Assembly: GCA_030448265.1 (NCBI GenBank)
Contig: JAUJNG010000013.1
Span: 94,621 to 158,620 of the forward strand
DNA: 64,000 nucleotides
Origin: Abditibacterium sp.
Lineage (GTDB): Bacteria; Armatimonadota; Abditibacteriia; Abditibacteriales; Abditibacteriaceae
Direction of reading: 5' to 3'
Made by a program: the position numbers and the translations under genes. Within the stretch, counting starts at the first letter, position 1, and each line of letters begins with the position of its first letter. Positions 1 through 18,600 of the stretch are shown here, one piece after another. The notes beneath the pieces are model-generated. The model had not been told where the DNA came from and ran no database searches. It worked only from the letters and a program-made list of their open reading frames with translations.

Positions 1-443
1 GCTCAGCGCCGAGGTTCAACAAGAGCGAGCAGGTGTTGCGCTGTCCCTCAAGCGTGATTCCTGGCCCGAATCGCACCTATTATGCTAATCAGGCAACCAA
101 TCCTGGCGGCGGCACGCGCAGCGAAGGCGCCTTCAACGCGTGGAATTCGGCGGGTCACAGCGAAGCCGAGTTTGTTTCGCCTGCGACGACGATCACGGTG
201 ACGGAAAGCGTCGCGAACGGTTGGTGAGAAATCCGCACTGGAGACAGTGCCTTTGGAGATCACTTATTCGTCGGACATCTCGGCACGACCAACTACTGGT
301 TCGTGACCAACAAGACTTTCACGCAGCAAAGTTGGAAAGCCAAATCGCCCCAAACATTTATCGAAGGCATCGCCACCACCGGCATGAAGGGATATGTCGT
401 CAAGAGGCCCGCACCCGTTTTTGGATGCGGGCCGTTGTTTTGA
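1..443 (+). pseudogene. 3' remnant of a DUF1559 (prepilin-type, H-X9-DG family) gene with an in-frame TGA
   Basis: The frame reads KSEQVLRCPS...VANGW*EIRTGDSAFGDHLFVGHLGTTNYWF. KSxQxxxCPS and HLGTxN are DUF1559 C-terminal motifs. Stop at 225-227, the usual DGHVK is missing, and the 5' end lies outside the window. Confidence 0.5.
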
Positions 444-543
444 GCCTGCAGCGGTGTGAACCTTCTCAAAGGGGCGTTTCACCCTGAAACGGAACCGCTT
501 TAAGCGGCGATGAATACGCTTTAGCTCTTCTTGCGAAGCATCC

Positions 544-1734
544 CTATCGAACCGCTTGCGGCACGAGGCGCAAAAGTTCGCCGTCCTGTTCGTCGGTCAA
601 AAGATACAGATGACCATCGGGCCCCTGACGCACGTCGCGCACGCGGCGCCCGATGGGCAGACGTTCCTGGTTCACGACCTTGCCGTTGGCATCCAGAACC
701 ACGCGGCGCACATCGCGCGTAGCCAGACCGCCACTGAACAGATTGCCCCTCCACTGCGGAAACTTGTCGCCGGTGTAGTAGGCCAGACCGCTCGCGCCAG
801 GCGAAGGCGTCCAGGCGACCAGGGGATCAACCATTCCGGCTTTGGTTTTGAGGCCCACCGGTTCGCCAGTGCGATAATCGCCACCCAGCGAGACCACCGG
901 CCAGCCGTAATTTTTGCCTGCCTGGAGCAAATTCAACTCATCGCCGCCGCGCGGCCCGTGTTCGGTCGCCCAGATGCGCCCTTGCGGGTCGCGGATCAGG
1001 CCCTGAATGTTGCGATGGCCGATGCTCCACAGTTCAGGAAGCGCCCCTTCTATTCTGGAAAAAGGGTTGTTGGGCGCGGCTTTGCCGTTTTCGTCGAGGC
1101 GCAACATCGAGCCCTGGTGCGAAGCTACGTTTTGCGCCTGCTCGCGCGCCAGAACGCCCCCGATGCGCGTGGGAGGATTGCCGCCATCGCCGATGCTCAT
1201 CAGCAACGTGCCGTCGGGCAGCCACAGCAAACGCGAACCGAAATGAGCGCCGCCGCTTTTCTCGAGGCCCACCTGGAACAAGGTTTGAATGTCTTTGACC
1301 CGCTCGCCGTCATACACGCCACGCACCAGCGTGGTGCGATTGGCGCGGCCCGTGCCGGTGGAAAGCGTGAGGTAAACCCATTTGTTGGCGGCGAATTTGG
1401 GATGCAGCGCGATATCGAACAGACCGCCCTGTCCGCCGGTGAAGACCTGGGGCATTCCAACCAGTTCGATTTCTTCGAAAACCCGTCCGTTGACGCGGTG
1501 GAGGGTGCCGTCTTTCGAGGTGACGAGCATTTGTCCATTGGGCAACCAGACTATGCCCCAGGGACGCACCGCGCCCTGGGCAACGGTTTCGACCTTCCAG
1601 CCTTTGGCTTGGGGCGGTGGGCCGGAAACTTCGGGCTGAGCCTGCACACAAGACATCGAAAGGGCGCCCAGAGCCAGGGAAACCACGCCGGTTTGCACCC
1701 TGCGCGCAGCGGTGTTGGGAAAACGAAAAGTCAT
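544..1734 (-). CDS. PQQ-dependent (glucose/sorbosone) sugar dehydrogenase, secreted
   Basis: Motifs PWGI, GQGGLFDIALHP, HFGSRL, GHRNIQG, EHGPRGGDELN, NYGWP, GRRVRDV. Signal-like N-terminus from ATG 1734. Confidence 0.92.
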   Translation of the reverse strand: MTFRFPNTAARRVQTGVVSLALGALSMSCVQAQPEVSGPPPQAKGWKVETVAQGAVRPWGIVWLPNGQMLVTSKDGTLHRVNGRVFEEIELVGMPQVFTGGQGGLFDIALHPKFAANKWVYLTLSTGTGRANRTTLVRGVYDGERVKDIQTLFQVGLEKSGGAHFGSRLLWLPDGTLLMSIGDGGNPPTRIGGVLAREQAQNVASHQGSMLRLDENGKAAPNNPFSRIEGALPELWSIGHRNIQGLIRDPQGRIWATEHGPRGGDELNLLQAGKNYGWPVVSLGGDYRTGEPVGLKTKAGMVDPLVAWTPSPGASGLAYYTGDKFPQWRGNLFSGGLATRDVRRVVLDANGKVVNQERLPIGRRVRDVRQGPDGHLYLLTDEQDGELLRLVPQAVR

Positions 1735-1758
1735 AAAATAATTCCTAAAATAATTGGA

Positions 1759-1830
1759 GGTGTTACGCAGTTGAAAACTTGGAAGAGGGTGCAAGCCCCG
1801 CCTCACCCAAGTTTTCAACTGCGTAACACC
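1759..1830. repeat. Palindromic miniature element with 24-bp perfect arms
   Basis: ggtgttacgcagttgaaaacttgg (1759-1782) is the exact reverse complement of 1807-1830. Confidence 0.85.
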
Positions 1831-2024
1831 AAAATTGCTTGATCGCGCCACAAAACCATCTCGCTCCATGCGACGTTTGAAACAAAAGCGTTCAATATCA
1901 AATCAAGTGGACGTGGCGATGCCCTCTTTTAGTCTCTGGGCAGCCCAAAAGGTTCCATTCTCGCCCTCATATTCTGTGCTGGTTGGGTTCGCCCTGGAAC
2001 TTTTCGATGCTGGCAACGACTCGC

Positions 2025-3092
2025 TCAACGCATTGAGTGTGCCGTTGCCTGAGCAGGCGCTGAGGTCAAACGGACGGTCACCTGGGCGGTGCGACCGCCG
2101 CGTCGCAGCCCAAGTGACAACACATCACCAGGACGGCGAGCGCGCAGCACACGGCGCAGGTCGCTGCCTCGATTGACCGGCGTCTCATCAGCGCGCGTGA
2201 TGATGTCCTGCGCGCGAACTCCCGCCTGCGCCGCCGGTGAGCCGGCCTGAACATCCTGAACCACGACGCCCTGACGCACCGGCATATCGAACTGCTGCGC
2301 GGTTTCCGGCTCGACATCGCTGTAGCTGATGCCCAGTTGAACGCGTTGCACCCGCCCCGTTTCGAGCAGCTGCTGCGCGATGCTGCTGGCCAGGTTAATC
2401 GGAATGGCGAAACCCAAACCGCTGGCGCCATTGCCGCGCAGCACGGCGGTGTTGATGCCGATGACGCGGCCCCGCGAGTCGAGCAGCGGCCCGCCCGAGT
2501 TGCCAGGGTTGATCGCGGCATCGGTTTGAATCAAGCCGTCCATCTCGAACCCGCTGCGATTGATGGCGGAGACCACGCCTGTCGTGACGCTGCGGTCAAG
2601 GCCGAGCGGGTTGCCGATGGCGATGCTGGCCTGCCCCGCTTGCAACTGATCGGAATCACCCAGAGGTGCCCGAGGAAAACTGCCGCCGGCTATCTTGACA
2701 ACCGCAACATCGGCGCTCGCGTCGCGGCCCAAAACGCGGCCCACCAGCCGGCGCCCATCAGCCAGTTCGACGCGCACTTGTTGAGCCCCACCTACAACAT
2801 GGGCGTTGGTCAAGAGCACGCCGTCGGAGCGGATGAGCACGCCCGATCCCATGCCGCCGTTGCGGCTGACGGTGACAACGGCGGGCGATACCTGCCGCGC
2901 CACGCGGATGATGTTCTGCTCTTCGCTGCTCATCGACGGCGCGTCGATAAAGCGCGCGTCCTGCGCCCACGCCAGAGGCAGCGCCAAGGGCCACGAGTGC
3001 GCGTTCTGAACTAATCCCTGCCCAATGCCCACACCGGTTCCCAGCGCGAGCGCCAGACCAAATGGGCGAAGTGACTTACTAAGTTTCTGCAT
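2025..3092 (-). CDS. htrA: HtrA/DegP-family trypsin-like serine protease with a PDZ domain
   Basis: [28 protein letters not shown] and a C-terminal PDZ. Start at ATG 3092 (MQKLSK). Confidence 0.93.
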   Translation of the reverse strand: MQKLSKSLRPFGLALALGTGVGIGQGLVQNAHSWPLALPLAWAQDARFIDAPSMSSEEQNIIRVARQVSPAVVTVSRNGGMGSGVLIRSDGVLLTNAHVVGGAQQVRVELADGRRLVGRVLGRDASADVAVVKIAGGSFPRAPLGDSDQLQAGQASIAIGNPLGLDRSVTTGVVSAINRSGFEMDGLIQTDAAINPGNSGGPLLDSRGRVIGINTAVLRGNGASGLGFAIPINLASSIAQQLLETGRVQRVQLGISYSDVEPETAQQFDMPVRQGVVVQDVQAGSPAAQAGVRAQDIITRADETPVNRGSDLRRVLRARRPGDVLSLGLRRGGRTAQVTVRLTSAPAQATAHSMR

Positions 3093-3353
3093 TGTCCTTC
3101 TTTGCCGTCCTTTTTTATTGCCCCTGCGACCTACCCGAAGTTCTTCGTCCGCGTGCCACAAATGGGCGAGCAAGTCACTTGCGTAAGTGACTTGCGGCGG
3201 CGAAAACATAACAGAAGAGCCAGCCAGGAAGCGTCGCAGCGAGAAAACTCTGCGACACCTGCTCTGGCAGGCTCTTAATTTAGCGAGAGTTGATCGATGG
3301 AGAGACGATGTTTATCGTCTTTACGTTCATCGGTTTCCGCCTTGATCGCTCCG

Positions 3354-3537
3354 CGCGCAATTGTGATGAAGCTCACCCGACTCTGGACAAAAAGAGACAG
3401 AAAGAGGAGGCAGGGGCGCAACTCCTACGTGAAATCCGCGCCCCTGCCTTGCAGCCTTCGCGTGGAGTGACACCGCCTCACGGCTGGGTTTGAGTCTCAA
3501 TCGCTGGAGGCAACCCCTCAAGGCACCCAATCGTGTG
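3354..3537 (+). ncRNA. Candidate structured ncRNA (rod-like, 6S-RNA-like)
   Basis: 12-bp apical stem 3408-3419/3438-3449, ctca-ccc pairing with gggtttgag, wobble-rich end pairing, purine-rich internal bubble, about 185 nt. Folded by eye only. Confidence 0.3.
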
Positions 3538-3609
3538 TTGGAACACTTCTTCCTCACCAGCCGGCGTGTGATTCCTCGCGTTGAGAACATCCGGCAGAGA
3601 TCAATCCTT

Positions 3610-4535
3610 ATGATGAAAAAACCTGTTCGCTTTTGTCATTGTGGCTGTGCTGTCTGGCTTTTAGCCCGTTCTCGTGGCAAGGCACCTCACGAGCCGAGGC
3701 GCAAGTGCGGCCCAATCCAGTCATTCGCAACGTCGTCTATGGCGAAGCCGGTGGCCAAAAACTCCTGCTCGATGTTTACGGTGCCAATCCCGCCCTCACG
3801 CGCCCCGCCATCATCTTCGTGCATGGCGGCAGTTGGAGCAGCGGTTCCAAGCACGACCTGGGCTTTGCGGCGGCGGCCCTGGCGCGTCAGGGTTATGTGG
3901 GCTTCTCCATCAATTACCGGCTGCTGCGAAACGGCAGGAACCGCTTTCCGGCTCAACTTGACGACGTGCAGCGAGCGGTGCGCTGGGTGCGCGCTCACGC
4001 CCGCGAATACGGCGTGGATCCGCGCCGCATCGGTGCCCTGGGCGCTTCTGCCGGCGGGCATCTGGCGGCTTTGCTGGGCACGACCGACACGCGCGACAAC
4101 AGCGATGCGGCCCTGGCGCGCTACTCCAGCCGTGTCCAGTGCGTTGTCGATCTTTATGGCCCAACCGACTTCACACCGGCTTTGGACCCCGCCAACCAGA
4201 GGAGGATGGCTGCCGCGAAATCTCCAGGAGCGGGGATCGTGCAACAGTTTCTGGGGCCCCTGCCCCAGGCTGCCGACAACTACCGTCTGGCTTCGCCCAT
4301 CACGCACATCGACAAGAAAACGGTGCCTTTCCTGATTTTTCATGGCGGCAGGGACACCCTGGTTCCGCTCGACCAGTCTCAGCGTCTGCACCGCGCGCTG
4401 CGCGCTGCAGGTGTCGAGTCGAGGTTGATTGTTTTTCCCGAAGCGGGTCATGGCTACACGGAGCCGAGGCTGTTGGCGCAAACCTTCGCTGCCGTTCAGG
4501 AGTTTTTCAACCGGCACCTCAAGACGTCCCCCTGA
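3610..4535 (+). CDS. Secreted alpha/beta hydrolase (BD-FAE/HSL-like esterase); probable 1-nt frameshift in the signal peptide
   Basis: HGGSW, GASAGGH nucleophile elbow, HGGRD, GHG. ATG 3610 (MMKKPVRF) joins the 3633 ORF if the T4 run at 3631-3634 were T5. Confidence 0.88.
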
Positions 4536-4608
4536 CCCCGAAGTAAGTTGAGAATTGGGCTCAAGAACAATGGCTCCATTCGCGCCTGATTTGGCTTAAG
4601 TCAATGCT

Positions 4609-5274
4609 ATGTCCCCAACCGAAGAAAGTTACACCTATCCAGCCGTGACTGTCGATGCGATTGTCTTCACCATTCGGCAGGAACAGTTGCAAGTTGCCCT
4701 CATCAAAAGGGGCATCGAACCGTTCAAAGGCTCCTGGGCGATTCCTGGCGGCTTCGTGCGTCTCGACGAATCTCTCGAAGACGCCGTGAAGCGCGAATTG
4801 AACGAGGAAGTCGGAGCCGATGGCGTCTATCTGGAGCAGCTTTACACCTTTGGCGAGCCGGAGCGCGATCCGCGCGGCCGCGTAATCACCGTGGCTTACT
4901 TCGCCCTGGTCGCCGCCGAGAACCTGCGCGAACTCACCGCCGCGACCGATGCCGCCGAAGCGCAGTGGTTTTCTCTGCATGATCTGCCTCCTCTGGCCTT
5001 CGACCACCGCCAAATTTTAGACCTCGCCCTGGGCCGGCTGCGCGCCAAGCTGGAATACAGCACCATCGCCTACGCGCTGCTGCCCAGAGCATTTCCGCTC
5101 ACCCAGCTTCAAAAGGTGTATGAGATCATTCTCGACCGCCCGCTCGACAAGCGCAATTTCCGCAAGAAAATCCTCTCCCTGGGCCTTCTCGAACCCACCG
5201 ACGAGCGTTCCGGCGGCGCGCATCGACCGGCGACGCTCTACCTCTTCAAAAACAGCCAGGTGACTTTTTTCTGA
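4609..5274 (+). CDS. nrtR: NrtR-family regulator (NUDIX plus winged HTH)
   Basis: VTVDAIVF, WAIPGGFV, NUDIX box RELNEEVG, QLYTFGEPERDPRGRVITVAY, LAFDH, C-terminal DKRNFRKK...HRPATLY. Confidence 0.92.
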   Translation: MSPTEESYTYPAVTVDAIVFTIRQEQLQVALIKRGIEPFKGSWAIPGGFVRLDESLEDAVKRELNEEVGADGVYLEQLYTFGEPERDPRGRVITVAYFALVAAENLRELTAATDAAEAQWFSLHDLPPLAFDHRQILDLALGRLRAKLEYSTIAYALLPRAFPLTQLQKVYEIILDRPLDKRNFRKKILSLGLLEPTDERSGGAHRPATLYLFKNSQVTFF

Positions 5275-5303
5275 CTTAACCGCCCCAAATTTTCCTCCCG
5301 CCC

Positions 5304-5366
5304 TTGACAAGCGATGGAGTAAGTGTAAAATTAACACCAACGCCGGAGTTAGTGTTCATTTCACGC
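5304..5366 (+). promoter_or_regulatory. Sigma70-type promoter overlapped by two NrtR-like operators
   Basis: TTGACA 5304-5309, 16-nt spacer, TAAAAT 5326-5331. GTGT-N7-ACAC at 5323-5337 and GTGT-N7-ACGC at 5352-5366. Confidence 0.65.
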
Positions 5367-5402
5367 GAACTCAATCATTTCGCCGGTGTGAAGGAGGAAC
5401 CA

Positions 5403-6554
5403 ATGCTGGTGACCCGCTCAACCCTGGAAGCGATAGCGCCGCGATTAGAAGGCGCGGCATGTCCCGAAGAAGTCTTTGGACTTTTGGCGGGCCAAACACC
5501 GGAAAAGCTCGCGGCGCTGAAGTCGGTGCAGCGCGGGCTGACGCGGGCCTGTCATCCCGATCTGGCGGCGCCCGCAGACAAAGCTCTGGCGACGCAGTTG
5601 TTTCAGTCGCTGGGGATTTGGGAGGGCATCGCCCGTCTGAAAATCGAAAATGGCACTTACGGCGATTTTCAGCCCTATCGCGCTCCAAGTCCGCCTTACA
5701 CACCGGTCGAGCTCGTGGTGCGCGGGCGGGCGCTGAAACTCACCGGCCTCATTGTCGAAGGCACTTTCGCGGGTGTTCACCGCGCCGAGTACGAGGGCGA
5801 AGACGATTCGCAGCGCGCCGTCTTCGTGAAAATCGCCCGCAGCGCGGGGGACAACGACTTACTGGAGCGGGAGTATCGGGTTTTGAAAGGGTTTCAGCAG
5901 ACCGATCCCGATCCCGACGCGGAGGATTTCCTGGCGACGCAGCGCGCTTATGTGCCCTGCCCTCTCACGTCTTTTTCTCTTCTGGACGAGAGCGGAGCCA
6001 AACACCGCGCCAACGTCCTGAGCGTGCCGCAGGGACGCTGCCTCACGGCGGAAACGCTGCGCCGCGACAAATATCCGTGTGGCATCGAGCCGAAACACGT
6101 GTGGTGGATTTTCAGGCGCCTGCTCCTGACGATTTGGATGGCGCATCTGAAGGGCACTGTTCATGGCGGAGTCACCCCCGACCATGTGCTGGTCTTTCCC
6201 GAAGCGCACGGTCTGGTGCTGCTGGACTGGACGTGTGCGGCTAAAATCGAAGAAGAACACGTTCCGGCCATTAATCCCGCTTACAAGGCTTTCTATCCGC
6301 CGGAAATCTTTCGCAAAGAGGCGGCGCTGCCCGCGACGGATTTGTTTATGGCGGCAGCCACCGCGATTGATATGCTCGGCGGTGATCCAGGCAAACGCTG
6401 GATTCCGTCTGCGGTGCCCGCTGCTCTGGGAGAAGCGCTGCTGAGCTGTCTCGACCCCATCGCGTCGCGCCGCCCGCAGGATGCCGAAGCGTTTCACAAC
6501 CAGTTCGGCGCTTTGCTGGGCCGGCGCATCTACTCCCCAATGCTCATCCCCTGA
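5403..6554 (+). CDS. N-terminal J-domain-like (HPD) region fused to a Ser/Thr-kinase-like domain lacking the catalytic Asp
   Basis: RBS aaggagg. RACHPD; VFVKIA (VAIK Lys); LLEREY; HGGVTPDHVL in place of HRDxKPxN; LLDW; FYPPE; DLFMAA. Confidence 0.8.
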   Translation: MLVTRSTLEAIAPRLEGAACPEEVFGLLAGQTPEKLAALKSVQRGLTRACHPDLAAPADKALATQLFQSLGIWEGIARLKIENGTYGDFQPYRAPSPPYTPVELVVRGRALKLTGLIVEGTFAGVHRAEYEGEDDSQRAVFVKIARSAGDNDLLEREYRVLKGFQQTDPDPDAEDFLATQRAYVPCPLTSFSLLDESGAKHRANVLSVPQGRCLTAETLRRDKYPCGIEPKHVWWIFRRLLLTIWMAHLKGTVHGGVTPDHVLVFPEAHGLVLLDWTCAAKIEEEHVPAINPAYKAFYPPEIFRKEAALPATDLFMAAATAIDMLGGDPGKRWIPSAVPAALGEALLSCLDPIASRRPQDAEAFHNQFGALLGRRIYSPMLIP

Positions 6555-6614
6555 GCCAACACGACCCGCACCGCTCTTGCGCGGTGCATTCCCGAAATGG
6601 GAAAGGACTCTATC

Positions 6615-7652
6615 ATGGGTGCAGGAATTTTCAATACTTCGGCCAGCGCGGCCCGCGCCAATATGCGCGCCCGCAGCGGCGCCACCGCGTTTACTCACGA
6701 CCTCGCGGCGCGAGCGGGCAAAGCCGCGCTGCTGCACAAAAGCCTGGATGTCACCAGGAAGCCGCGACGCGAGTCGCGCGATGTCGCGGGCAAGCCGCCG
6801 GCGACTCCCATCATGGTCTGGCTCGATGTCACCGGCAGCATGAGCCAAATTCCCAGCTTGCTGATTCAAGACCTCAATAAGCTGATGAGGCTCATCGTGG
6901 ACGGCAAAGTCGTCACCGACCCGCAGATCTGTTTCGCCGCCATCGGCGACGCGACCAGCGACCGCGTGCCGGTTCAGGTGGGCGAGTTCGAGGCGGACGA
7001 CAAGCTCGCCGAGGCTCACCTTGCCAACATTTTTCTGGAAGGCGCGGGCGGCGGCCAGAACAGGGAATCGTATGAAATGGCGCTGTGGTTTGCCGGCAAT
7101 CAAGTCGATACCGATGCCTTCGAGAAGCGCGGCGAAAAGGGATTTCTCTTCCTCATCGGCGACGAAGCGCCCTATGGCAAGGTGCGGCGCGATTTGGTCA
7201 AAACCTATCTCGGCGTGCCAATCCAGAAAGACGTGTCGCTCAAAGAAGCGGTCGCACAGGCTTCGCGGAAGTTTCACGTTTTCGTGATTCGTCCTGGCGG
7301 CACCAGCAACTACGCCGATCCCAATGTGCAGCGCGCCTGGACATCGGTTCTGCCCGCCGAGCGGGTGATCAAGCAGGAGAACTGGCAGGACATCGTTCCT
7401 CTCATGGCGGGCATGATTTCGGTGATGTCGGGCGAGAGCCTCGACGACATTCGTCCTGGTTTCGCAGTGCGGCCATTTGGCAATCATGCCGATCCCTGGT
7501 TCCCCGCGCAGCGTCTGTGGCCAACGGTTCGGCATCGCCCGTGCGGGGATGGTGGCGGCGCGCCTGGACATCCTGATGTTCCAACCGCGCAGCGTCTGGT
7601 GATCAAATCCAGGATTGAACTGGAGACATCGTTCCTCTCAGCGCGAGCATGA
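6615..7652 (+). CDS. vWA (MIDAS) domain protein; 3' end probably garbled
   Basis: RBS aaagga. DVTGSM MIDAS, AIGDA, EGAGGGQNRESYE, FLIGDEAPY. Sequence after about 7450 loses protein-like character. Confidence 0.82.
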   Translation: MGAGIFNTSASAARANMRARSGATAFTHDLAARAGKAALLHKSLDVTRKPRRESRDVAGKPPATPIMVWLDVTGSMSQIPSLLIQDLNKLMRLIVDGKVVTDPQICFAAIGDATSDRVPVQVGEFEADDKLAEAHLANIFLEGAGGGQNRESYEMALWFAGNQVDTDAFEKRGEKGFLFLIGDEAPYGKVRRDLVKTYLGVPIQKDVSLKEAVAQASRKFHVFVIRPGGTSNYADPNVQRAWTSVLPAERVIKQENWQDIVPLMAGMISVMSGESLDDIRPGFAVRPFGNHADPWFPAQRLWPTVRHRPCGDGGGAPGHPDVPTAQRLVIKSRIELETSFLSARA

Positions 7653-9161
7653 TCCTTGATGTCGCTGAATTGGTGAGCGACGCACGGTTTCGGCGATGGC
7701 CGCCTCTTTCGACAGCGCGGGCATTGATGCACACGGCAAATCGCTGGTCTCACTTTTGGCCAAAAGGTTCGATCACCGATGCCCTGGTCGCGGGGATGGT
7801 GGCGGCGCGGATCTGGTGGTGCGCCGTCAGCAACGGCGGTGCCCAGGCCAAATCCAGTGATTGACGAACTTTGAGACGGGCTGCCACATCTTTCATCGCT
7901 CGGCAGCGGCACCCTGGTGGAAGGCTTCCAAAGCTTCATTAAAGGAGGGCGCGGTGCACACGGCATTTGTTATGCTTTTGGGTCAATCCGCTCGCTTGCG
8001 CACCAGCAGCGGTGCATTGACGAAGCGAGGACATCTTTCATCAGTTCGGCAGCGGCACCCAAGAACTCGCTCGCTTTGCATTACGAGGAATTGGCGCTCC
8101 AAGAACTGGGCGTTAAGGATGCGGCGGAGCGAATGTTTGTCGATGCCAGAGCATTGGTGACCACGCCCTACCACATGATTTTCAACCAACTCAGGGAATT
8201 ATCGCGCGGGGAAGGCAGGCATGGATCGTGTGGCCTGGGCATTGGCGAAACGGCGGCGGATGCTCTCGATTTCGAGCCGGATGTCCTGCGTTATAGCGAC
8301 CTGAGCAACCAAGGGTTGCTGGGATGCAAGCTGCGCTGGCACCGCGATCTCAAGCGGCGCCAGTTGGAAGGGTTGATGGCACCGTTGGCTGCCCAGACGG
8401 GTGCGGCGAGACGGAAAATTCACGCTCTGCTAAGCCAGATGGAGAGTGAGGACGAGATGGAAGCGGCCCACGATGTCTTTGCGGCCATCGCCGAACGCTT
8501 CAAACTCGCGCCGCCCGATTTCCTGGCCGCGAGGATGAGGAAATCGGGAGCGACGGTGTTTGAAGGCGCGCAGGGAGTGCTCCTCGACGAAAGATGGGGC
8601 TTTCATCCCCACACGACCTGGTCGAACACCACGCCCGCCAACGCGCTGCAACTCATCAAGGAAACGCGGTGCAGCATTCAAACCACCGTGCTGGGATTGA
8701 CTCGCGCCTACGGAACTCGTCACGGCACCGGCCCCTTTCCAAGCGAAGATGAAGGGGTGACTCTGGCCCTGCCCGAACCGCACAACCCAACCAATGAGTG
8801 GCAAGGCCCATTTCGAGCCGGATGGCTCGACCTTTCTTTGCTCCGTTACGCTATTGAGGTCAGCGGTCGGATCGATGGCCTGGTAATCACCTGTCTGGAT
8901 CGCGTCAAAGACTTGCCGGAGGTTAAAGTAGGAACCGGCTATGGGATCAAGGGCGACTCGTGGCACCTGACTCCCAACTATTCCGCTGGTCTGGCGGAGC
9001 AGGAGAAAATGGGGAAGATGCTGGGTGAGGTCGATGTAACTTACACGCCCGCTCATCCCGAACCACCGGCGTATGCTCGGCAGGTAGCGGAATCGCTCGG
9101 CCTGCCTCTTCTGGGGTCTTCCTTTGGCCCCACGGCTCGAGACAAAGTGTTCGCATTTTAA
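7649..9161 (+). CDS. Divergent adenylosuccinate-synthetase-like (PurA fold) enzyme; 5' part frameshifted or jumbled
   Basis: ATGA overlap with the vWA stop. Fragments GFGD, KGSITDAL, NGGAQA, HIFHQFGSGT lie in different frames. Intact part has HGSCGLGIGET, FEGAQGVLLD, RAYGTRHGTGPFPSE, GWLD, ITCLD, SFGP. Confidence 0.8.
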
Positions 9162-9553
9162 AGCGGTTCTCGTTTGAGTTGATCCACGCTCGTTGGTAGG
9201 GACATGGCCTGCCACCTAATGTGTGACTTATTTTTCAATGGCTGAAGAGCCAGAAAGCTTGTGTGCCAGGAGGCTGAAGCCTCGGCAAGCAAACCAAGCC
9301 TGCCTTCGCAGGCTACACCTCATCCATAGGCCACGCAGGTGGCCTTGGTTTGGTTGCCGAGGCTTCAGCCTCCTGGCACATCCTGGAACACCTTGGAACA
9401 TCCTGGCACACAAGCCATCATCGTAGACTCTCACACTCCCCAAGAGTCACACATTAAGTGGCAGGCTATGTCCTTCGAGGGAGTAAGAAGCACCACAAGG
9501 ACATGGCAGGCCATGTCCCTACGAACCTGTCATTTCATTCGAGAACCGCTTTA
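9159..9553. mobile_element. Nested composite palindromic element (MITE/REP-like)
   Basis: 14-bp perfect terminal IR taaagcggttctcg/cgagaaccgcttta. Inner GTAG-REP arms 9196-9228/9445-9473 and 9498-9522. Inner arms about 9262-9298/9344-9380. Four 10-bp tandem units at 9371-9410. Confidence 0.75.
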
Positions 9554-9733
9554 AGCTGGTTGGCCTTCTTGAGAGGTGAAAGCGGCCATTGGGCCGCAAA
9601 CTCTGCCTGAAGCCCAATACACGCGCAAGCGAGGAGCTTGATTGAATTTTTCAATGCTCCAGTTGCCGTTGAGGTGCTGTTCTTCGACAACCTAAGGTTC
9701 AAGCCAGACGGTGGAATCGCGCGCCATGAAAAA

Positions 9734-10585
9734 TCAGTGCCGCAATAGGAACTCCGCGACTTCTCTCCACCACGCCGCGCGCGGATCGATGTCGAGCGTG
9801 TTGTGTCCGGCGTCGTGCTGAATCCACAACTTCTTCGGGCCACCGTAGCCCTCGAAAAGCGCCTGGCCAAACCGAGTCGGCACAATGTCATCTTTGCCGG
9901 CCAGCAACACCGCGACGCGGCCCGAGTATTTTTTCAGGGCCGCCGCCGCTTCATATTTGTCTTGCAAAACGAGGCGAACCGGAAACATCGGAAAGCGACT
10001 GGCCGCGACATCGGCGGTGCTGGTGTAAGGCGTGACCAGGAACAAACCGCGCACGTCGCGGGGATGCTGGGCCGCCAGCAGGCACGCCACGCCAGTCCCC
10101 AGCGATTCGCCGGCGATATAAAGTGGTCGCGGGTCGTTTTTCAGCAGTTGGTTCAAGGCCGCGTTCGCCGCCGCCACGATTTCGCTCTGGTTCGCCTGGC
10201 CTTCTCGCCAGCCATAGCCAGGATATTCCAGGCAGTAAAAGTCCCACTCTTTTCCATCGCGCTGCGCCCCAAGTCCGTCCATGAAATAGGTGCGCGTGAG
10301 AGCGTGCCCGCCGTTGCCGTGCAAAAGGAGCATACGGTTTTGCGCGGGTTCTGGCGCTTCGCGTTTCCAGCCAATAAGTGCGCCCTGTGCATCGCGCCAC
10401 GGCTGCACTTTGTGCTGCGGGGCGAGCGCGAGAAATTCGCTTTCCTGCCCGCGAGTGGGATGATACATGAAAGTGCGCTGCATCAAAGCGAGAACGAGAA
10501 ATACGCTCGCGTAGACGCTCAATGCGAACCATAACAGCTTAATCGCCATGTGCTTTCGAGAAGAGACAGCGCGCAAAGTCTTCAT
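9734..10585 (-). CDS. Membrane-anchored alpha/beta hydrolase (ABHD13/Bem46-like)
   Basis: LLLHGNGG, EYPGYG, GESLGTGVA, DDIVP, GHN; N-terminal TM helix. Confidence 0.88.
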   Translation of the reverse strand: MKTLRAVSSRKHMAIKLLWFALSVYASVFLVLALMQRTFMYHPTRGQESEFLALAPQHKVQPWRDAQGALIGWKREAPEPAQNRMLLLHGNGGHALTRTYFMDGLGAQRDGKEWDFYCLEYPGYGWREGQANQSEIVAAANAALNQLLKNDPRPLYIAGESLGTGVACLLAAQHPRDVRGLFLVTPYTSTADVAASRFPMFPVRLVLQDKYEAAAALKKYSGRVAVLLAGKDDIVPTRFGQALFEGYGGPKKLWIQHDAGHNTLDIDPRAAWWREVAEFLLRH

Positions 10586-10644
10586 GGTATCCCGTTTGGA
10601 ATGGCGCGGTGACGTCAGCCGACAGGGCCATCTCATCAGGAATT

Positions 10645-10760
10645 ATTCACCGCCCTACGCAGAGGCGCAAAGGTAAAAAACGAGAGTGAAAAGCGAGGCT
10701 TGGGGGCCAAGGCAGAGCTTCCCCGCTTTTTTCTTTGCGCCTCTGCGTAGGGCGGTGAAT
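10645..10760. repeat. Palindromic MITE-like element (caccgc..cagaggcgcaaag family)
   Basis: 28-bp perfect arms 10645-10672/10733-10760. Confidence 0.85.
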
Positions 10761-10849
10761 CAATTTCTGATGCGATGGCCCTGAGTCAGCCGAAAACCTC
10801 GCTTTGGATAGACGCCCGCTCCTGTCACACTGCCAGAGTTGAGATTACG

Positions 10850-11881
10850 ATGCCACAAAAGAGCGTTCGTTCCCATCGCGGCGAGCTGCCTGCCGCTCCC
10901 CAGACGCCTCCGCAACGGGTGTCCAGAGCCATGACGGGTGTTTCGGCGCTGCTTTGCCTGGGCCTGACGCTTTGCTACTGGCGGCGGCCCGATGCCTTCG
11001 CTGCGGTCACGATTTTTCCGGTCGGGTGCTGGTTTGTGCTTGGACTGCTGCTGACCGCTTGGGGCTGGAATCGCAGCCTTGCGCGCCAGGCCAAGTGGGT
11101 GGGAGCGATGTGGCTGGGGTTTCTGTTGATTTTCGCCGATGAACCCCGCAGCCTCCTGCGCGCGCTCCTGCCTCCACCGTCTCGAGATGAAGCGCGCAAC
11201 CTGCGCGTGGTTTCGCTCAATTGCAGTGCCGGCGATCCTTTGGCGGCGGCAGAAGTGGCGAAGTGGAAACCCGACGTGGTGCTGCTTCAGGAATCTCCGT
11301 CGCGCGCCGATGTCGAGCGACTGGCGCGCAGGCTGTTTGGAAAAGAGGGTGATTTCCTCTGGGGCGTCGATGGTTCCATCCTCGCTCGCGGCAGGCTGAC
11401 CCCGCGCCCGCTCTCGTCGGCCCTACGCAACTACTTTGTCCAGGCGCGCCTTCAATTACCGCAGGGCCAGGAGGCGGAAGTGCTGAGTCTGCGCCTCATG
11501 ACGCCGCCGTTTCGCATCGACTTGTGGTCACCATCGTGTTGGGAGGCTTATCCTCATAACCGTCAACTTCAGCGCGACCAGATGGGTGCCATCAGGGAGC
11601 AGTTGGGCGCGGTTCCCGATGAGCGCGCCCTCATCGTGGGCGGAGACTTCAACGCTCCTCAGGGCGATGCGATTTTCGGTGCCCTGCGCCCCCGCCTGCG
11701 CGACAGCTTCTCCCGCGCGGGCCGAGGCTGGGGCAATACCATCATCAACGATTTCCCCGCACTACGCATCGACCAAATCTGGGCCAGCGAGGCGTTGCAG
11801 CCGCGAAGTGTGAGAGCGCATCAAACCCAGAACTCCGATCACCGCGCCGTTATCGCCGATTTTCGCTGGAGCACCAAGTGA
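10850..11881 (+). CDS. Membrane endonuclease/exonuclease/phosphatase (EEP) family protein
   Basis: Three N-terminal TM segments; VVSLNC, LLQES, GGDFNA, RIDQIW, SDHRAV. Confidence 0.88.
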   Translation: MPQKSVRSHRGELPAAPQTPPQRVSRAMTGVSALLCLGLTLCYWRRPDAFAAVTIFPVGCWFVLGLLLTAWGWNRSLARQAKWVGAMWLGFLLIFADEPRSLLRALLPPPSRDEARNLRVVSLNCSAGDPLAAAEVAKWKPDVVLLQESPSRADVERLARRLFGKEGDFLWGVDGSILARGRLTPRPLSSALRNYFVQARLQLPQGQEAEVLSLRLMTPPFRIDLWSPSCWEAYPHNRQLQRDQMGAIREQLGAVPDERALIVGGDFNAPQGDAIFGALRPRLRDSFSRAGRGWGNTIINDFPALRIDQIWASEALQPRSVRAHQTQNSDHRAVIADFRWSTK

Positions 11882-11966
11882 TTCGCCTTCAATACGATGG
11901 GACTGGGCTGAGCGTGGAGTTTCAATACACCCTGATGACGCCGGTTATTTGAGATTGAGATGTGCG

Positions 11967-12074
11967 GCTTAACGTTTAATCTCACCCGCAACCGGAAGCC
12001 GAAGCGCAGTGGAGCGAGGAACGAGCGGAACGAAGCGCAGGCTGTAGAAGGTCGGGTGCTGCGCCTTGTTGTGC
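11967..12074 (-). mobile_element. Integron attC site (108 bp)
   Basis: Minus strand: R'' GCACAAC, 5 nt, L'' GCAGCACC, central imperfect palindrome, L' GGTGAGA, 6 nt, R' GTTAAGC. Lies 16 nt after the stop of ORF 12091-12450. Confidence 0.8.
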
Positions 12075-12090
12075 TGCTTGTCGGTCGCTT

Positions 12091-12450
12091 TCAATCAGTG
12101 ATTTTGAGATCGTTGAGCGTGTGTTCGCTTGGCCCCGACAAATTTACTGAGACTTTTTCTCTTGGCACTGCGTTGGAATATGTCGGCAAACCAACGATAA
12201 CCAATAAAAAATCTTCTATCACGCTCGCAGCGTTCATGTTTATCCACGAGTGACCAGCATTTAGATGTTTTTCAAATAGTGCCGTATATTCATCTGGTGT
12301 TACAAGCGCAGAACGAGGAACGAGGCTAACCTCACCATGTGTGATGTCAGTATCCTCAGCAATCAAAATGCGCGACCACGAAAGCGGCTGTTGGGACGAA
12401 CCGAGCCAAGAAGTAAGTCGTTCGAGATGTCGTTGGAGTTCGCTTATCAT
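12091..12450 (-). CDS. Hypothetical gene-cassette ORF (about 119 aa), lower GC
   Basis: ORF ends just before attC and is AT-richer than its flanks. No motif recognised. Confidence 0.6.
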   Translation of the reverse strand: MISELQRHLERLTSWLGSSQQPLSWSRILIAEDTDITHGEVSLVPRSALVTPDEYTALFEKHLNAGHSWINMNAASVIEDFLLVIVGLPTYSNAVPREKVSVNLSGPSEHTLNDLKITD

Positions 12451-12562
12451 TATCTTCAAGTTTCACTTTCCGAAACGCCGCGCGCAAGCAGAACAACAAC
12501 GTCGCTGTGTCGAAGCGCACGGCGTCGCACAGATGGAAACTGAGTTAGTAGAATGGAGAGTT

Positions 12563-13075
12563 ATGGGCAATATCCAAGAACGTCCACTCACCGACGAAGA
12601 AAAAGCAGAGTTTGAGACGCGTTCGTCGCGGGCTCTCAAGAATCTGGGTGTCAATGCCCCTGAAGCCAGTGCGGAATCTATTGTTCAACTGGTCGATGCT
12701 TTCGTGGATAAATGGCAAACCGGCGGCTTCGCGCCACGAAAGTCATTGTTCAGTCGCAAACCGGCTTTGCCCGACAGTGTTGATGTCGCATTGGGCCTGG
12801 GTGCCGTGTGGGGAGATCAAATCGTCAGGAAATTTGGCTGGGAATGGACGTGTCTTCAACAGGACGGACAAGATTTATATTGTGTCGCTTCTCAAGACTG
12901 TGGCTGGGTCATTTATCCCACCTATTTCCTCAAGGCGTGTCTTGACAATCCCCATGCCGATTGCACCGCCATGCTGAGTTTCAACATGCTGGCGGCGGGC
13001 AATATTCCTGCAAACCCCGCCAATAGTTATGAGAACCTGATGGGCGGAGTTCAAAGGGTCGTCCCCAAGCGTTAA
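12563..13075 (+). CDS. Hypothetical protein, DUF3806-like
   Basis: RBS ggag before ATG 12563. ALGLGAVWGDQIVRKFGWEW...GWVIYP resembles DUF3806; lower GC. Confidence 0.55.
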   Translation: MGNIQERPLTDEEKAEFETRSSRALKNLGVNAPEASAESIVQLVDAFVDKWQTGGFAPRKSLFSRKPALPDSVDVALGLGAVWGDQIVRKFGWEWTCLQQDGQDLYCVASQDCGWVIYPTYFLKACLDNPHADCTAMLSFNMLAAGNIPANPANSYENLMGGVQRVVPKR

Positions 13076-13158
13076 AATCTCGGCGCCCTTGTTCCACCTC
13101 ATCGTCAGGTGACTCACATCGGGACAAGGCGATTCGATGATGGGCGAAAAGCCATGGA

Positions 13159-13196
13159 AAAAGCCGCGCACTTCGCAATGCGCGGCTTTTGGTTTT
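13159..13196 (+). terminator. Intrinsic terminator
   Basis: aaaagccgcgca-loop-tgcgcggctttt followed by a T-rich tail. Confidence 0.75.
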
Positions 13197-13613
13197 TGTC
13201 GAGGCTCTATTCGCCTCGTTCCACGAGATAACGCATCTCGCCATCGACCAGAATCACACCCAGCACGCGGCGCCACTGCGACTCCGTTTGCGCCTGATGC
13301 TTTCCTGCTTCTTCGTTCGACGGCTTTTCCCCACTAAAGATAAAGGGGTTGTCCCCCTGGGTTTGAAACGTGTTCAAGGTGTTCATTTGTCCTTTCCTTC
13401 GCTCGGATTGTGGAGGTCAAAGACGCCTTCAACTCCATATTTGTTCGTCAAGAACTTTCAGTTCCTCGCCCTGAGTGGGCTACGAGGAAACACGCAAAAG
13501 CCAGCCTACAAGCTGTTCCCCGCGATCTTATTCCCAATAGGCTCTTGGCGAATGGGCGGCAGATCAAATCGCCCTCTATCGGGGCGCGGGTCTGGCCGGA
13601 CGCTCTTTGAGAG

Positions 13614-15965: not shown

Positions 15966-16105
15966 ACTCTCTTTGAATTGTTTCGGCGCGAAGTGTGGTT
16001 CGGCCAATGGTTATTAATATAATAGTTTATTTTCCTGCGTCAAACTCTCACTTCGTGGTTTTCGACTCTTCTGTTCCTTCCTCAAATCCGCAACACTGGT
16101 TACTG

Positions 16106-17137
16106 ATGATTCCGCCCCTGCACCGCTACAAACTCCCTTTGTTCGCCATTTCGTGCCTCGCCAGCGCGTGTTTTCCGGCCCTGGCTCAACAAACCCGACC
16201 TCCTTCCACTTCGATGACCGTCCCGCAGCCGACCTCGCTTTCTCCTTTTGCCGACGACCTAACGCGGCAGATTTTGGCGCGCTTTGTGGGCGAAAAACTC
16301 AAAGCCGACGAGTTCGCCTGGACGCTCATCGATCTGCAAAATCCGGTGGTGCCCGCCATCGCCGGTTATCGCGCCGATGAGCCGATTTATCCGGCGAGCG
16401 TCGTCAAATTGTTCTATCTGGCGGCGGCGCAGCACCAACTCGAAAGCGGGCAAATGCCCGACACGCCCGAACTGCGCCGCGCTCTGCGCGACATGATCGT
16501 CGATTCCAGTAACGACGCGACGGCGCTGGTGCTCGATATGCTCACCGGCACGACGGGCGGGCCGGAACTTTCGCCCGCAGAGTTCGCGCTCTGGGCGCAA
16601 AAACGCAACGGCGTCAACCGCTTTTTCGCCGGTCTGGGCTTCGGCGGCATTAATGTCAATCAAAAACCGTGGAACGAAGGCCCCTATGGCCGCGAACGCC
16701 AGTTTGTCGGCCCCAATTACCACAACCGCAACAAACTCACGACGGCGGCCACGGCTCGTTTGCTTTCTCAAATCGCGCGGCGCCAGTGGGTTTCACCCGC
16801 GCGCTCCGACGAGATGCGCGAACTTTTGAAACGCGATCCGACGGCCAAAGCGAGCGCCGACTCCCAGGTCGCGGGCTTTATCGGCGCGGCCATTCGCGAC
16901 GTTCCTGGCGCGGCGCTGTGGTCGAAAGCGGGATGGACGAGCAAGACCCGCCACGACGCGGCTTACATCGAACTGCCAGTTTCACCCCAATTTCCGCGCG
17001 GGGCGCGCTTCGTGCTGGTAGTTTTTACTTCCAACCATGCCCCAAATACCCAGATGTTGCCCGCGATGGCGCGTTTGATCATCGACAGGCAGTTTGGCAG
17101 TAGCGCTGCCCAAGTGAACACGGCCCAGGTGAAATAG
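16106..17137 (+). CDS. Serine hydrolase, class A beta-lactamase-like fold
   Basis: PASVVK (SxxK), DSSND, WSKAG; signal peptide. Confidence 0.85.
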   Translation: MIPPLHRYKLPLFAISCLASACFPALAQQTRPPSTSMTVPQPTSLSPFADDLTRQILARFVGEKLKADEFAWTLIDLQNPVVPAIAGYRADEPIYPASVVKLFYLAAAQHQLESGQMPDTPELRRALRDMIVDSSNDATALVLDMLTGTTGGPELSPAEFALWAQKRNGVNRFFAGLGFGGINVNQKPWNEGPYGRERQFVGPNYHNRNKLTTAATARLLSQIARRQWVSPARSDEMRELLKRDPTAKASADSQVAGFIGAAIRDVPGAALWSKAGWTSKTRHDAAYIELPVSPQFPRGARFVLVVFTSNHAPNTQMLPAMARLIIDRQFGSSAAQVNTAQVK

Positions 17138-17147
17138 ACTGGCGCCG

Positions 17148-17921
17148 ATGGATTTAACCTGGTGGCAGTGGGCGGCGCTGGCGGGCGGCTCGTTTTTGAT
17201 TGGAGCGACCAAAGCGGGCCTGGTGGGCATCGGCATTCTGGCGATTGCCATTTTCGCCCTGATTTTGCCGCCGCGCGATTCGACGGGTGTGGTGCTGCCG
17301 CTTTTGATCTGCGCCGATGCCGTGGCCGTCGCGCTCTATCGCCGCCACGCGGTGTGGCCGCATCTGGTTCGGCTCGTGCCCTGGGCGGCTCTGGGCATCG
17401 TCGTGGGCGCGGGCGCCATGAGCCGCATCGACGACCGCGCGGTTCAACTCTTTCTCGGCGTCGTGCTGCTCGCTCTGACGCTTTATCAACTGGGCCAGCG
17501 CTTGCGTCCCTCGGCGCCGCAGGAAACGCCGCAAGCCGCCGAAGGCGCGGGGGAGCACTCGGCCAGCGTGGGATTGGCTGCCGTTGTGGGTCTGGCGGCG
17601 GGTTTTGTGACCATGCTCTCCAATGCGGCGGGGCCGCTCATGCTGCTTTATCTGCTGGCGATGAGACTGCCCAAATGGGAAATGATCGGCACCGGCGCGT
17701 GGTATTTTCTGCTGCTCAACGTGTTGAAAGTGCCCTTTAGCGCCGACCTGGGATTGATTAATGCGTCTTCTTTGCTTTTAGACCTGACGCTGGCGCCCTT
17801 CGCCGTGGCGGGCGTGCTTCTGGGGCGGCGTTTGATCGCGCTCATCCCGCAGAACGCTTTCGAGTTGCTGGCGCTGATTTTTACCGGCCTTGCCGCCGCA
17901 CGCCTGCTGTGGATGGGATGA
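17148..17921 (+). CDS. TauE/SafE-family (sulfite exporter-like) membrane protein
   Basis: Eight TM segments; STGVVLPLLICAD; NAAGP. Confidence 0.88.
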   Translation: MDLTWWQWAALAGGSFLIGATKAGLVGIGILAIAIFALILPPRDSTGVVLPLLICADAVAVALYRRHAVWPHLVRLVPWAALGIVVGAGAMSRIDDRAVQLFLGVVLLALTLYQLGQRLRPSAPQETPQAAEGAGEHSASVGLAAVVGLAAGFVTMLSNAAGPLMLLYLLAMRLPKWEMIGTGAWYFLLLNVLKVPFSADLGLINASSLLLDLTLAPFAVAGVLLGRRLIALIPQNAFELLALIFTGLAAARLLWMG

Positions 17922-17959
17922 CAACGCGGCGCCGTGGCCCTCGCCCAATTTTCTTGCGA

Positions 17960-18424: not shown

Positions 18425-18600
18425 GCGGGTTTGTGATTTCCGAGGGTCTTTGGAACCTATCCAAAGGGGCTGGGAGCGCGAGCATCCATGCTCGCAGTGC
18501 GGCCTCAGCCGCATCAAAGGCGTGAGGCTTTCGCGGGGTTGCGAGTAAGGATGCTCGCGCTCCCGAAAAAAGTTTAAACGTCTATCGAGATAGGCTCTTA

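Follow-up and report, generated by a model that had tools for sequence, protein, structure and literature searches.

A PurA-like enzyme paired with a vWA/MIDAS protein, a J-domain pseudokinase and an NrtR-type regulator: a widespread cassette of bacteria, plasmids and phages with a proposed role in nucleotide metabolism

The PurA superfamily comprises, to our knowledge, two known reactions, that of adenylosuccinate synthetase (PurA) and that of phage PurZ. In Escherichia coli PurA, Asn38, Thr129 and Arg143 are ligands of the 5'-phosphate of inosine monophosphate (IMP), and Thr301, Arg303 and Arg305 are ligands of L-aspartate. von Willebrand factor type A (vWA) proteins take part in NTPase-vWA pairs, among them MoxR-vWA, BchI-BchD, CobS-CobT and CoxD-CoxE, and in the TerY-P triad, which consists of a vWA protein, a PP2C phosphatase and a Ser/Thr kinase. 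Turnover of NAD+ and ADP-ribose is a central currency of phage-bacterium conflict. Here we describe a cassette of four genes, encoding an NrtR-type regulator, a J-domain pseudokinase, a vWA protein and a PurA-like enzyme, at positions 4609-9161 of a 64,000-nt stretch of Abditibacterium sp. DNA (GCA_030448265.1, contig JAUJNG010000013.1, forward strand 94,621-158,620), hereafter the window.

Several published findings frame the comparison. vWA proteins have been described as co-chaperones of NTPases (PMC7159879). Phage PurZ carries Ser at the position of Asp13 in 100% of cases (PMC12884076). NrtR regulators bind sites with a GT-N7-AC core and have ADP-ribose as their effector, and two that were characterised have perturbed Nudix boxes and no hydrolase activity (PMC2330246). 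A survey from 2025 reports a PurA-domain gene beside genes for a DarT-like ADP-ribosyltransferase (ART; the Lmac_3114 family), an AAA protein and a Nudix protein (PMC12522546).

The cassette is real and widespread. All four genes lie on the + strand within 4609-9161, which bears out the co-orientation described in a first-pass annotation of the window, and a neighbourhood search recovered the same genes together in other genomes across phyla, as that annotation had expected. Its framing of the locus as a TerY-P-like defence triad is not supported. Our tentative explanation, held at somewhat less than even confidence, is a nucleotide-transforming module under NrtR control, with a vWA-dependent PurA-like ligase at its center and a J-domain pseudokinase that would act as an Hsp70 adaptor.

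Domain calls were made with Pfam and with NCBIfam equivalog models, defence systems were sought with PADLOC 2.0 models, and phage families were assigned with PHROG. Single-chain models of the pseudokinase and the vWA protein were obtained with AlphaFold2 and compared to known folds using Foldseek. The vWA family was surveyed by a pattern scan of one genome per species and then by a HMMER scan of 1.84 billion representatives. Neighbourhoods were counted in the best 80 loci from profile searches (about 50 from Actinomycetota, together with Chloroflexota, Planctomycetota, one Abditibacteriota and one gammaproteobacterial metagenome-assembled genome), and loci cut by a contig end were set aside for the PurA-like count. 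Enzyme residues were read from 179 family sequences aligned to Burkholderia thailandensis PurA, with E. coli numbering, and vWA termini from 238 full-length members. Logan short-read contigs from four soil-metagenome runs, X1-X4, were used for comparison with the same strain.

The PurA-like enzyme has the PurA fold, with matches to PDB structures at 1e-37. The intact 3' part of its gene in the window, 364 codons at 8068-9161 (+), was delimited with Pfam and with relatives; the Pfam match (Adenylsucc_synt, PF00709, 8e-44) covers the profile from position 75 onwards only. Recognizable motifs are GSCGLGIGE (8223-8249), FEGAQGVLLD (8559-8588), TRHGTGP (8715-8735), EWQGPFRAGWLD (8796-8831), ITCLD (8886-8900) and SSFGP (9117-9131). 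The P-loop, GD-GKG, is kept in the family, and Asp13 (177 of the 179 sequences), Lys16, His41, Gln224, Thr239, Asp333 and the SxGP motif are invariant or nearly so. The PF00709 fold, Asp13, His41 and the GTP-binding P-loop are all present in intact relatives and in the read-supported sequence of this strain; this part of the deposited window sequence is scrambled, as described below. Since these catalytic and GTP-site residues of PurA are kept, the same GTP-driven activation chemistry is likely.

The substrate pocket is changed throughout the family, in agreement with the first-pass description of a re-purposed PurA fold. Glu14 is replaced by Ala, Lys18 by Ser or Thr, Gln34 by Asn, Asn38 by Gln, Thr128 by Ser, Thr129 by Cys (178/179), Arg131 by Met or Leu and Lys331 by Cys or His. 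Arg143 has no counterpart, an invariant His follows the conserved Thr-Arg, and the aspartate loop Thr300-Arg305 is replaced by W-Q-G-x-F-R, so that aromatic residues now occupy former positions of L-Asp side-chain ligands. The ligand set for the IMP 5'-phosphate and L-Asp is thus missing from the 179 sequences. Together, these residues indicate that the chemistry was probably kept while the substrates changed.

By its sequence features, the enzyme belongs with neither PurA nor PurZ. A second, ordinary adenylosuccinate synthetase, serving biosynthesis or salvage beside unrelated neighbors, would account for the strong PF00709 match, the kept catalytic residues and the name adenylosuccinate synthetase in public records. 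However, the PurA equivalogs TIGR00184 and NF002223, with cut-offs of 395-402, give family members 120-184 bits, the full-length relative P0003 reaching 157-184, and both the aspartate and the 5'-phosphate ligands are replaced. Plasmid-borne members of the family are 35-42% identical to the query, compared with 26-32% for the canonical PurA sequences among the hits shown, and the gene almost always stands beside a vWA gene, also on plasmids and phages. We therefore regard a plain PurA isozyme as very improbable. PurZ was ruled out as an identity, as Asp13 is kept and the PurZ model NF038379 gives 17-56 bits, far under its cut-off of 300. A plasmid-borne 'adenylosuccinate synthase' of Burkholderia (27% identity) was set aside as well, its context being unrelated. 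In a Chloroflexota-type triad (L096, 2262-4358; protein P0041), the PurA-like enzyme is fused to a cyanophycinase-like S51 serine exopeptidase (6nqc, 7e-31), a possible hint towards aspartyl-peptide chemistry. The idea that this fusion partner supplies ammonia through a channel, as a glutaminase-type donor comparable to that of CTP synthase, was rejected, as it is an exopeptidase with a GxSAG motif.

At least 582 species genomes hold a member of the vWA family, and the HMMER scan gave approximately 1057 clusters (50% identity) at E<=1e-30. The family extends over several bacterial phyla, over megaplasmids and over some 200 sequenced mycobacteriophages. PurA-like relatives at 40-83% identity were found in Abditibacteriota, Armatimonadota-like and Chloroflexota records, on contigs in which kinase-like, vWA and PurA-like genes follow one another; nrtR lies 5' of this triad in locus L001 and is absent in L004, L005, L006 and L008. 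Across the 80 loci the order is (nrtR)-kinase-like-vWA-PurA-like on a single strand. After exclusion of loci truncated at a contig end, 76 remain, and in 72 of them the PurA-like gene directly neighbors the vWA gene. A kinase-like gene is present in about 65 of 78 loci, and nrtR stands immediately upstream in 48 of 80, all actinobacterial bar one Gemmataceae locus. Clustering of the open reading frames in the 80 loci gave no further neighbor present in more than 11, apart from frames overlapping the cassette genes. The cassette is also carried on plasmids, megaplasmids included.

Among phages, the vWA family was found in 219 records, of which about 200 are cluster C1 mycobacteriophages (Bixzunavirus) that carry the vWA and PurA-like genes along with a kinase-like gene. 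In Mycobacterium phage Sebata (L091), gp260-263 are a J/HG-kinase-like protein, a vWA protein, an 88-aa protein and a PurA-like protein. Sebata gp260, annotated 'Ser/Thr kinase', has HPD, VHGA and DWC and is without the catalytic Asp; gp263 is typical of the PurA-like family (GDAGKGT, GSCGKGIGE, TRHG, WQGKFRQGHLD). Vibrio phage Va1 carries only the vWA and PurA-like genes, beside nrdD/nrdG, and Rhizobium phage RHph_TM30 likewise carries only this pair, near Nudix and phosphoribosyltransferase genes. As the pairs of Va1 and RHph_TM30 stand without kinase and NrtR, the minimal core is the vWA and PurA-like genes, and the others are add-ons. Upstream of the pair in RHph_TM30, at a distance of 3-4 kb (L093, 1498-3164), are genes for a ComF-like phosphoribosyltransferase, a HAD-type hydrolase and a Nudix protein, which may belong to a larger nucleotide or NAD module. 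Published notes on C1 phages list just a 'PurA-like adenylosuccinate synthetase' and a 'serine/threonine kinase' (PMC9476963), and the cassette was not described in the literature covered by our full-text search. The public labels 'adenylosuccinate synthetase', 'Ser/Thr kinase' and '2-aminooxy adenylosuccinate synthetase' are probably wrong, the last (in the Sebata record and PHROG 1211) because Asp13 is kept and the score falls short of the PurZ model's cut-off.

The constant pairing of a MIDAS vWA protein with a P-loop protein predicted to bind GTP would also suit a remodelling or metal-insertion pair of the NTPase-vWA kind, in which the PurA-like protein served mainly as a GTP-driven switch and not as a ligase. 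The described role of vWA proteins as NTPase co-chaperones (PMC7159879) and the chaperone traffic implied by a J-domain partner would agree with such a pair. However, Asp13, His41 and Gln224, which are needed for PurA chemistry only, are invariant or nearly so across the 179 sequences, and no metalloenzyme client is conserved near the 80 loci. We consider a remodelling pair improbable, and keep to the PurA-like protein as a ligase.

The vWA gene starts at ATG 6615 (MGAGIF...), and its 5' 277 codons are intact in the window (6615-7447, +), as judged from the model and the conserved motifs: the N-terminal MG...F, RESRD (6768-6782), DVTGS (6825-6839) and IGDE (7155-7166). The Pfam scan gave no match for the window protein, the vWA models included, and PHROG 2971, which it matches, is labelled as of unknown function. 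Its AlphaFold2 model (predicted local distance difference test score, pLDDT, 90.4) resembles the von Willebrand factor A3 and integrin I domains (Foldseek E 1e-5 to 1e-4), and DVTGS and IGDE are invariant in the family. The protein is thus a vWA domain with a MIDAS, and the intact DxTGS motif noted in the first pass is conserved across the family. In the relatives P0340 and P0432, the vWA match breaks near residue 177, near IGDE, with weak Hint (intein-like) Pfam matches there, and the annotation of certain C1 mycobacteriophages places an HNH endonuclease gene at that break (e.g. Yassified gene 258). Insertions at this place would fit a functionally critical motif.

Both ends of the vWA protein carry conserved features. 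The protein starts with MG in 224 of 238 members, 216 of which have an aromatic residue at position 6; in almost every representative the profile match starts from residue 1, the model shows no structure over residues 1-7, and the MG...aromatic start is kept in phages without a kinase-like gene. At the other end, 126 of the 238 have -RL as the last residues of a C-terminal tail that is modelled with low confidence. Among judgeable loci, tails with and without -RL number 55 and 7 where a kinase-like gene is present, and 3 and 11 where it is absent (2 and 11 after re-assignment of L012, whose kinase-like gene lies downstream of the PurA-like gene). The association has a Fisher p of approximately 4e-7 with or without L012 in the gene-present class, and phages agree with it. 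We infer from these sequence patterns that the N-terminal segment serves the enzyme and the -RL tail the pseudokinase, and the vWA protein probably works with its P-loop NTPase neighbor.

The conserved N-terminus allows a different kind of ligase, one directed at protein. Here the PurA-like enzyme would link a purine nucleotide via C6/N6 to the N-terminal Gly of the vWA protein after Met removal, with Gly in place of aspartate as the nucleophile and about 330 Da added if IMP were the donor. The vWA protein would then be a carrier or switch, and the J-domain pseudokinase and DnaK would read, reset or handle the modified protein. The MG at residues 1-2 and its retention in kinase-less phage pairs, the unstructured first residues, the aromatics in place of the L-Asp ligands, and the coincidence of the vWA stop with the PurA-like start in the open reading frame coordinates of many Actinobacteria are in its favor. 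Yet the modification is without precedent, a conserved N-terminus could just as well serve for docking, and the altered IMP 5'-phosphate site is left unexplained. To modify a single protein for each enzyme partner would also be an odd use for a phage gene pair among nucleotide-metabolism genes. We judge it unlikely. If true, it would be a new post-translational modification ('N-terminal purinylation'), switched on by products of NAD+ breakdown and copied by large phages.

The J-domain pseudokinase gene (5403-6554, +; 383 aa, called protein P0241) was delimited by its homologs and the AlphaFold2 model. An initial reading placed its start at TTG 5304; homolog lengths of 356-383 aa set it at ATG 5403, with a ribosome-binding site, GAAGGAGG, at 5390-5397. 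The motifs described in the first pass were recovered and are conserved across the family: HPD (residues 51-53; 5553-5561), the VAIK-type Lys (K143, in VFVKIAR, 5820-5840) and VHGG in place of HRD (6159-6170). The alpha-C Glu is kept, DFG is replaced by DW(T) (LLDWT, 6219-6233), and YPPE (6294-6305) is APE-like. Throughout the family, HPD (nearly invariant), Lys, Glu, DW and APE are kept and HRD has become HG, so that the catalytic Asp is absent from all members, as expected of a pseudokinase. The AlphaFold2 model (pLDDT 93.6) begins with four helices, and HPD connects those at 32-50 and 57-82 in the helix II-HPD-helix III arrangement of a J-domain, although Pfam DnaJ matches on relatives are weak or faint. 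The kinase part has a Hanks-type fold (Foldseek to PknB, 4e-11; PHROG 3043 'kinase', 2e-36). From these features, a protein of this kind is expected to be able to bring DnaK/Hsp70 to a complex and unable to phosphorylate. The vWA and kinase genes had been likened to a TerY-P-type triad, which was ruled out, as the conserved neighbourhoods hold no PP2C gene and the kinase is dead.

The regulator gene (4609-5274, +) encodes an N-terminal Nudix domain (PF00293, 2e-21) and a C-terminal NrtR winged helix (PF21906, 5e-26), the architecture of the NrtR family. It scores 182 bits against the equivalog model NF050029, whose cut-off is 400, and orthology to characterised NrtRs is not established at this score. 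Its Nudix box is intact (4747-4818, +; G-x5-E-x7-REUxEExGU), and complete boxes were found in 48-50 of 50 cassette NrtRs. The strongest promoter-like sequence of the region, TTGACA-16-TAAAAT (5304-5331, +; score 11/12), lies between nrtR and the kinase-like gene and is the only one near consensus. The palindrome GTGTAAAATTAACAC (5323-5337, +), the sole GTGT-N7-ACAC in the window, overlaps its -10 element and is a candidate NrtR operator. The promoter/palindrome block is conserved in the relative L001. Sites of the form GTTnTTCTC-N5-GAGAAnAAC lie 5' of nrtR in 47 of 48 nrtR-bearing loci, mostly as two copies 16 bp apart. A palindromic operator with the GT-N7-AC core of the NrtR family is thus predicted at the target promoter. 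On plasmids, a Nudix/NrtR gene lies divergent from the same set (Agrobacterium vitis) or downstream of it (Rhodococcus), and the three arrangements make the link to the cassette independent of gene order. NrtR control, as proposed in the first-pass annotation, is therefore plausible, and a switch-on of the cassette by ADP-ribose-class nucleotides would follow by analogy with characterised NrtRs. On the evidence consulted, no match could be established between the cassette and nrtX-nrtY, genes of unknown function that PMC2330246 places in nrtR2 regulons of Streptomyces and Frankia. In L004 (Abditibacteriota IAD-21; 13289-16362), an nrtR-less triad lies 5-7 kb from nadC (quinolinate phosphoribosyltransferase) and a gene for a KptA/Tpt1-type NAD-dependent RNA 2'-phosphotransferase, a proximity that is anecdotal as a link to NAD.

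In the module we propose, the core would be a PurA-superfamily ligase working with a dedicated vWA/MIDAS protein as a self-contained accessory cassette. To judge from the kept residues, a purine nucleotide would be phosphorylated by GTP at its 6-oxo group, after which the phosphate would give way to an amine. Because the ligands of the IMP 5'-phosphate and of free L-aspartate are replaced, the product would not be adenylosuccinate, and the substrates would be other than this pair. The phyletic patterns suggest that the M-G-x-x-x-aromatic segment and the MIDAS face of the vWA protein point towards the enzyme, and its flexible -RL tail towards the J-domain pseudokinase, which would recruit DnaK/Hsp70 to the complex. 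An NrtR-type repressor, in Actinomycetota and some Planctomycetota as well as in this organism, would cover the promoter at the sites described, and the module would turn on when an ADP-ribose-class nucleotide accumulates, i.e. upon NAD+ breakdown. Our best guess for its role is to adjust or repair the purine or NAD-derived nucleotide pool under NAD+ breakdown stress, a capability that large lytic phages may have borrowed for their own nucleotide-metabolism modules.

Several points weigh against this proposal. In four loci the vWA gene has no adjacent PurA-like gene, and no analogous replacement was seen there; the place after the vWA gene is taken by a gene for a sigma factor, for a LysR regulator or for an AAA/DUF5925 protein, or holds nothing identifiable. 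Neither the phages nor the Chloroflexota loci examined carry NrtR, so the link to NAD and ADP-ribose is not universal. The operator in the window is a single site, for which the 0.29 copies expected by chance per window are not negligible, and its motif is unlike the actinobacterial one. The pocket changes are interpreted through residue roles from the structural literature on E. coli PurA, and contact of the vWA protein with the enzyme or the pseudokinase would follow solely from gene adjacency and phyletic correlation.

The first-pass annotation had proposed an ADP-ribose-induced anti-phage or abortive-infection system, and this stands weakly. The NrtR/Nudix link, carriage on plasmids, the variable genomic context and the PurA-domain family next to DarT-like ART and Nudix genes (PMC12522546) would suit such a function. 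However, PADLOC 2.0 returned nothing for the vWA or PurA-like protein and only weak kinase-fold matches to the MkoA (4e-10) and PD-T4-6 models, the Pfam scan found ordinary enzymes in the immediate surroundings of the cassette in the window, and no neighbor is conserved beyond the cassette. A toxin-like effector is not present. About 200 lytic mycobacteriophages, as well as Vibrio and Rhizobium phages, carry the core, and a metabolic or counter-defence function that benefits phages would be the better fit. We hold a defence system to be improbable and retain the nucleotide-transforming module as our tentative explanation.

In the deposited sequence, the junction of the vWA and PurA-like genes looks like that of a pseudogene. 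The stretch 7448-8067, which holds the vWA 3' end, the spacer and the PurA-like 5' end, was compared with short-read contigs of the same strain using blastn/tblastn and three-frame reading, and is block-shuffled with many 1-2 nt indels. X1 contigs have 0 mismatches to the window over 3610-7447 and 8068-9225, and those of X2 and X4 likewise agree with it exactly on the two flanks. On the vWA side, X1 and X2 give the order 7447, then 7683-7730, then GACCACGAAATCGCTGGTTCCCC (23 nt), then 7518-7621, and the first joint (7447 to 7683) is also present in X3. On the PurA-like side, they give 7935-7973, CACGGATCTCACTTTTGGCGATGCGGG (27 nt), 7762-7925, GTGGAAACTTTTCTTTCGCGCCATATGCTGGTCAATC (37 nt) and 8068 onwards, and the last joint (to 8068) is also present in X4; the piece 7762-7925 differs from the window by 10 mismatches and 19 gap positions. 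Read depth across the rearranged joints equals that of the flanks, and comparison of the contigs to the window revealed no other rearrangement of this kind within 1-20000, the remainder of which they match exactly.

In the short-read contigs both genes are intact, with a hairpin-bearing spacer between them. The vWA protein ends in ...PTAQRL, with its true stop near 7600, and the PurA-like gene starts at GTG 7954, preceded by AAAGGAGGG and with a ribosome-binding site at 7941-7949, and reads MHTAFVITDLTFGDAGKGS.... In the window as written, the N-terminal ~85 codons of the latter, with the P-loop and the His41 region, are unreadable, being split over three frames with stops, duplicated fragments and ~105 nt extra, and the vWA C-terminus is displaced too. 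The gene caller accordingly returned 342 aa only (P0001); intact homologs have 442 aa and start MHTA.V.TDL.FGDAGKGS. The apparent pseudogene in the record is therefore a sequence artefact, and both genes are whole in the real strain. The probable cause is faulty consensus or assembly at a GC-rich palindrome in the spacer, an inverted repeat in which the short-read contigs stop. A diversity-generating retroelement or phase-variable region was ruled out, as the copies differ by many 1-2 nt indels; a single intact order is seen in X1, X2 and, for the PurA-like half, X4, with the vWA-side joint backed by X3.

The ATGA overlap by which the first-pass annotation coupled the vWA and PurA-like genes lies at 7649, inside the scrambled stretch, and for this reason is not a real gene junction. 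Spacers of 87-147 nt with strong hairpins separate the two genes in the relatives L001 (7873-8000), L010 (1573-1719) and L004 (7914-8000), with z-scores of -1.9, -5.2 and -2.9, respectively; two are followed by a U-run. Their position and structure are kept and their sequence is not. These spacers argue against translational coupling in this clade, in contrast to the abutting genes of many Actinobacteria, and the hairpin could be a partial terminator or processing site that tunes the ratio of the two proteins.

Other long GC-rich palindromes of the window are intergenic, with arms of 34-54 nt, and look like repeated hairpin elements of the repetitive extragenic palindrome (REP) or miniature inverted-repeat transposable element (MITE) type. 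They lie at 9262-9380 (arms of 54 nt, just 3' of the cassette), 10645-10760, 18472-18564 and 18623-18729. Short-read contigs break or skip around 9190-9550 and 17391-18750, where depth is 2-4x higher. Upstream of the cassette, X1 contig depth reaches ~200x over part of an HtrA-like protease gene (2002-2668), compared with ~16x elsewhere, which suggests sequence common to other, more abundant organisms in the sample.

If the proposed module is correct, its enzyme would be a third class of the PurA superfamily with a rebuilt substrate pocket. The tie of a PurA-like enzyme to a dedicated vWA protein, and often to a pseudokinase predicted to recruit Hsp70, is a combination not described in the literature searched. 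The NrtR-type regulator, with a catalytic-looking Nudix site, would tie the cassette to NAD+/ADP-ribose turnover, and carriage by lytic phages makes the cassette directly testable by experiment.

Among described systems, PurA itself (EC 6.3.4.4; E. coli 1ADE, B. thailandensis 3UE9) shares the fold, the P-loop, Asp13, Lys16, His41, Gln224, Asp333 and SxGP with the cassette enzyme. The latter differs in Gln38, Cys129, the lack of Arg143, the replaced aspartate loop and Cys or His at Lys331, and in its scores, which lie below the curated cut-offs; it is the product of an accessory gene that is always paired with a vWA protein. PurZ/PurZ0, of the 2-aminoadenine pathway of Z-genome phages, is likewise a phage-borne PurA paralog, whose name the mycobacteriophage member carries in a similar form in PHROG 1211 and the Sebata record; PurZ has Ser at position 13, unlike the Asp of the cassette family. 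NrtR regulons (Rodionov et al. 2008, PMC2330246) resemble the cassette in a Nudix and winged-helix repressor encoded beside its target operon, in tandem sites and in a promoter-located palindromic operator whose core is GT-N7-AC. In contrast, the cassette targets are not genes of NAD biosynthesis or pentose metabolism, the Nudix box is intact, and the actinobacterial operator is GTTnTTCTC-N5-GAGAAnAAC. The DarT-like ART neighbourhoods (PMC12522546) also tie a PurA-domain gene to ADP-ribose and Nudix biology, which suggests a wider link between PurA-like enzymes and ADP-ribose; the cassette has no ART gene, and the comparison is by description, not by subfamily.

TerY-P triads likewise have a vWA gene beside a kinase-fold gene, whereas the cassette kinase lacks the catalytic Asp and has a J-domain, and the constant partner is a PurA-like enzyme. 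MoxR-vWA and chelatase-type pairs (PMC7159879) share with the cassette a MIDAS vWA protein encoded beside a P-loop NTPase and a chaperone theme. No MoxR AAA+ gene is conserved in the 80 loci; the cassette NTPase is of the PurA fold and not AAA+, sensor and effector domains are absent, and Hsp70 would be recruited through the J-domain. By analogy, the cassette would in general terms work like a PurA-type ligase and like the NTPase-vWA pairs.

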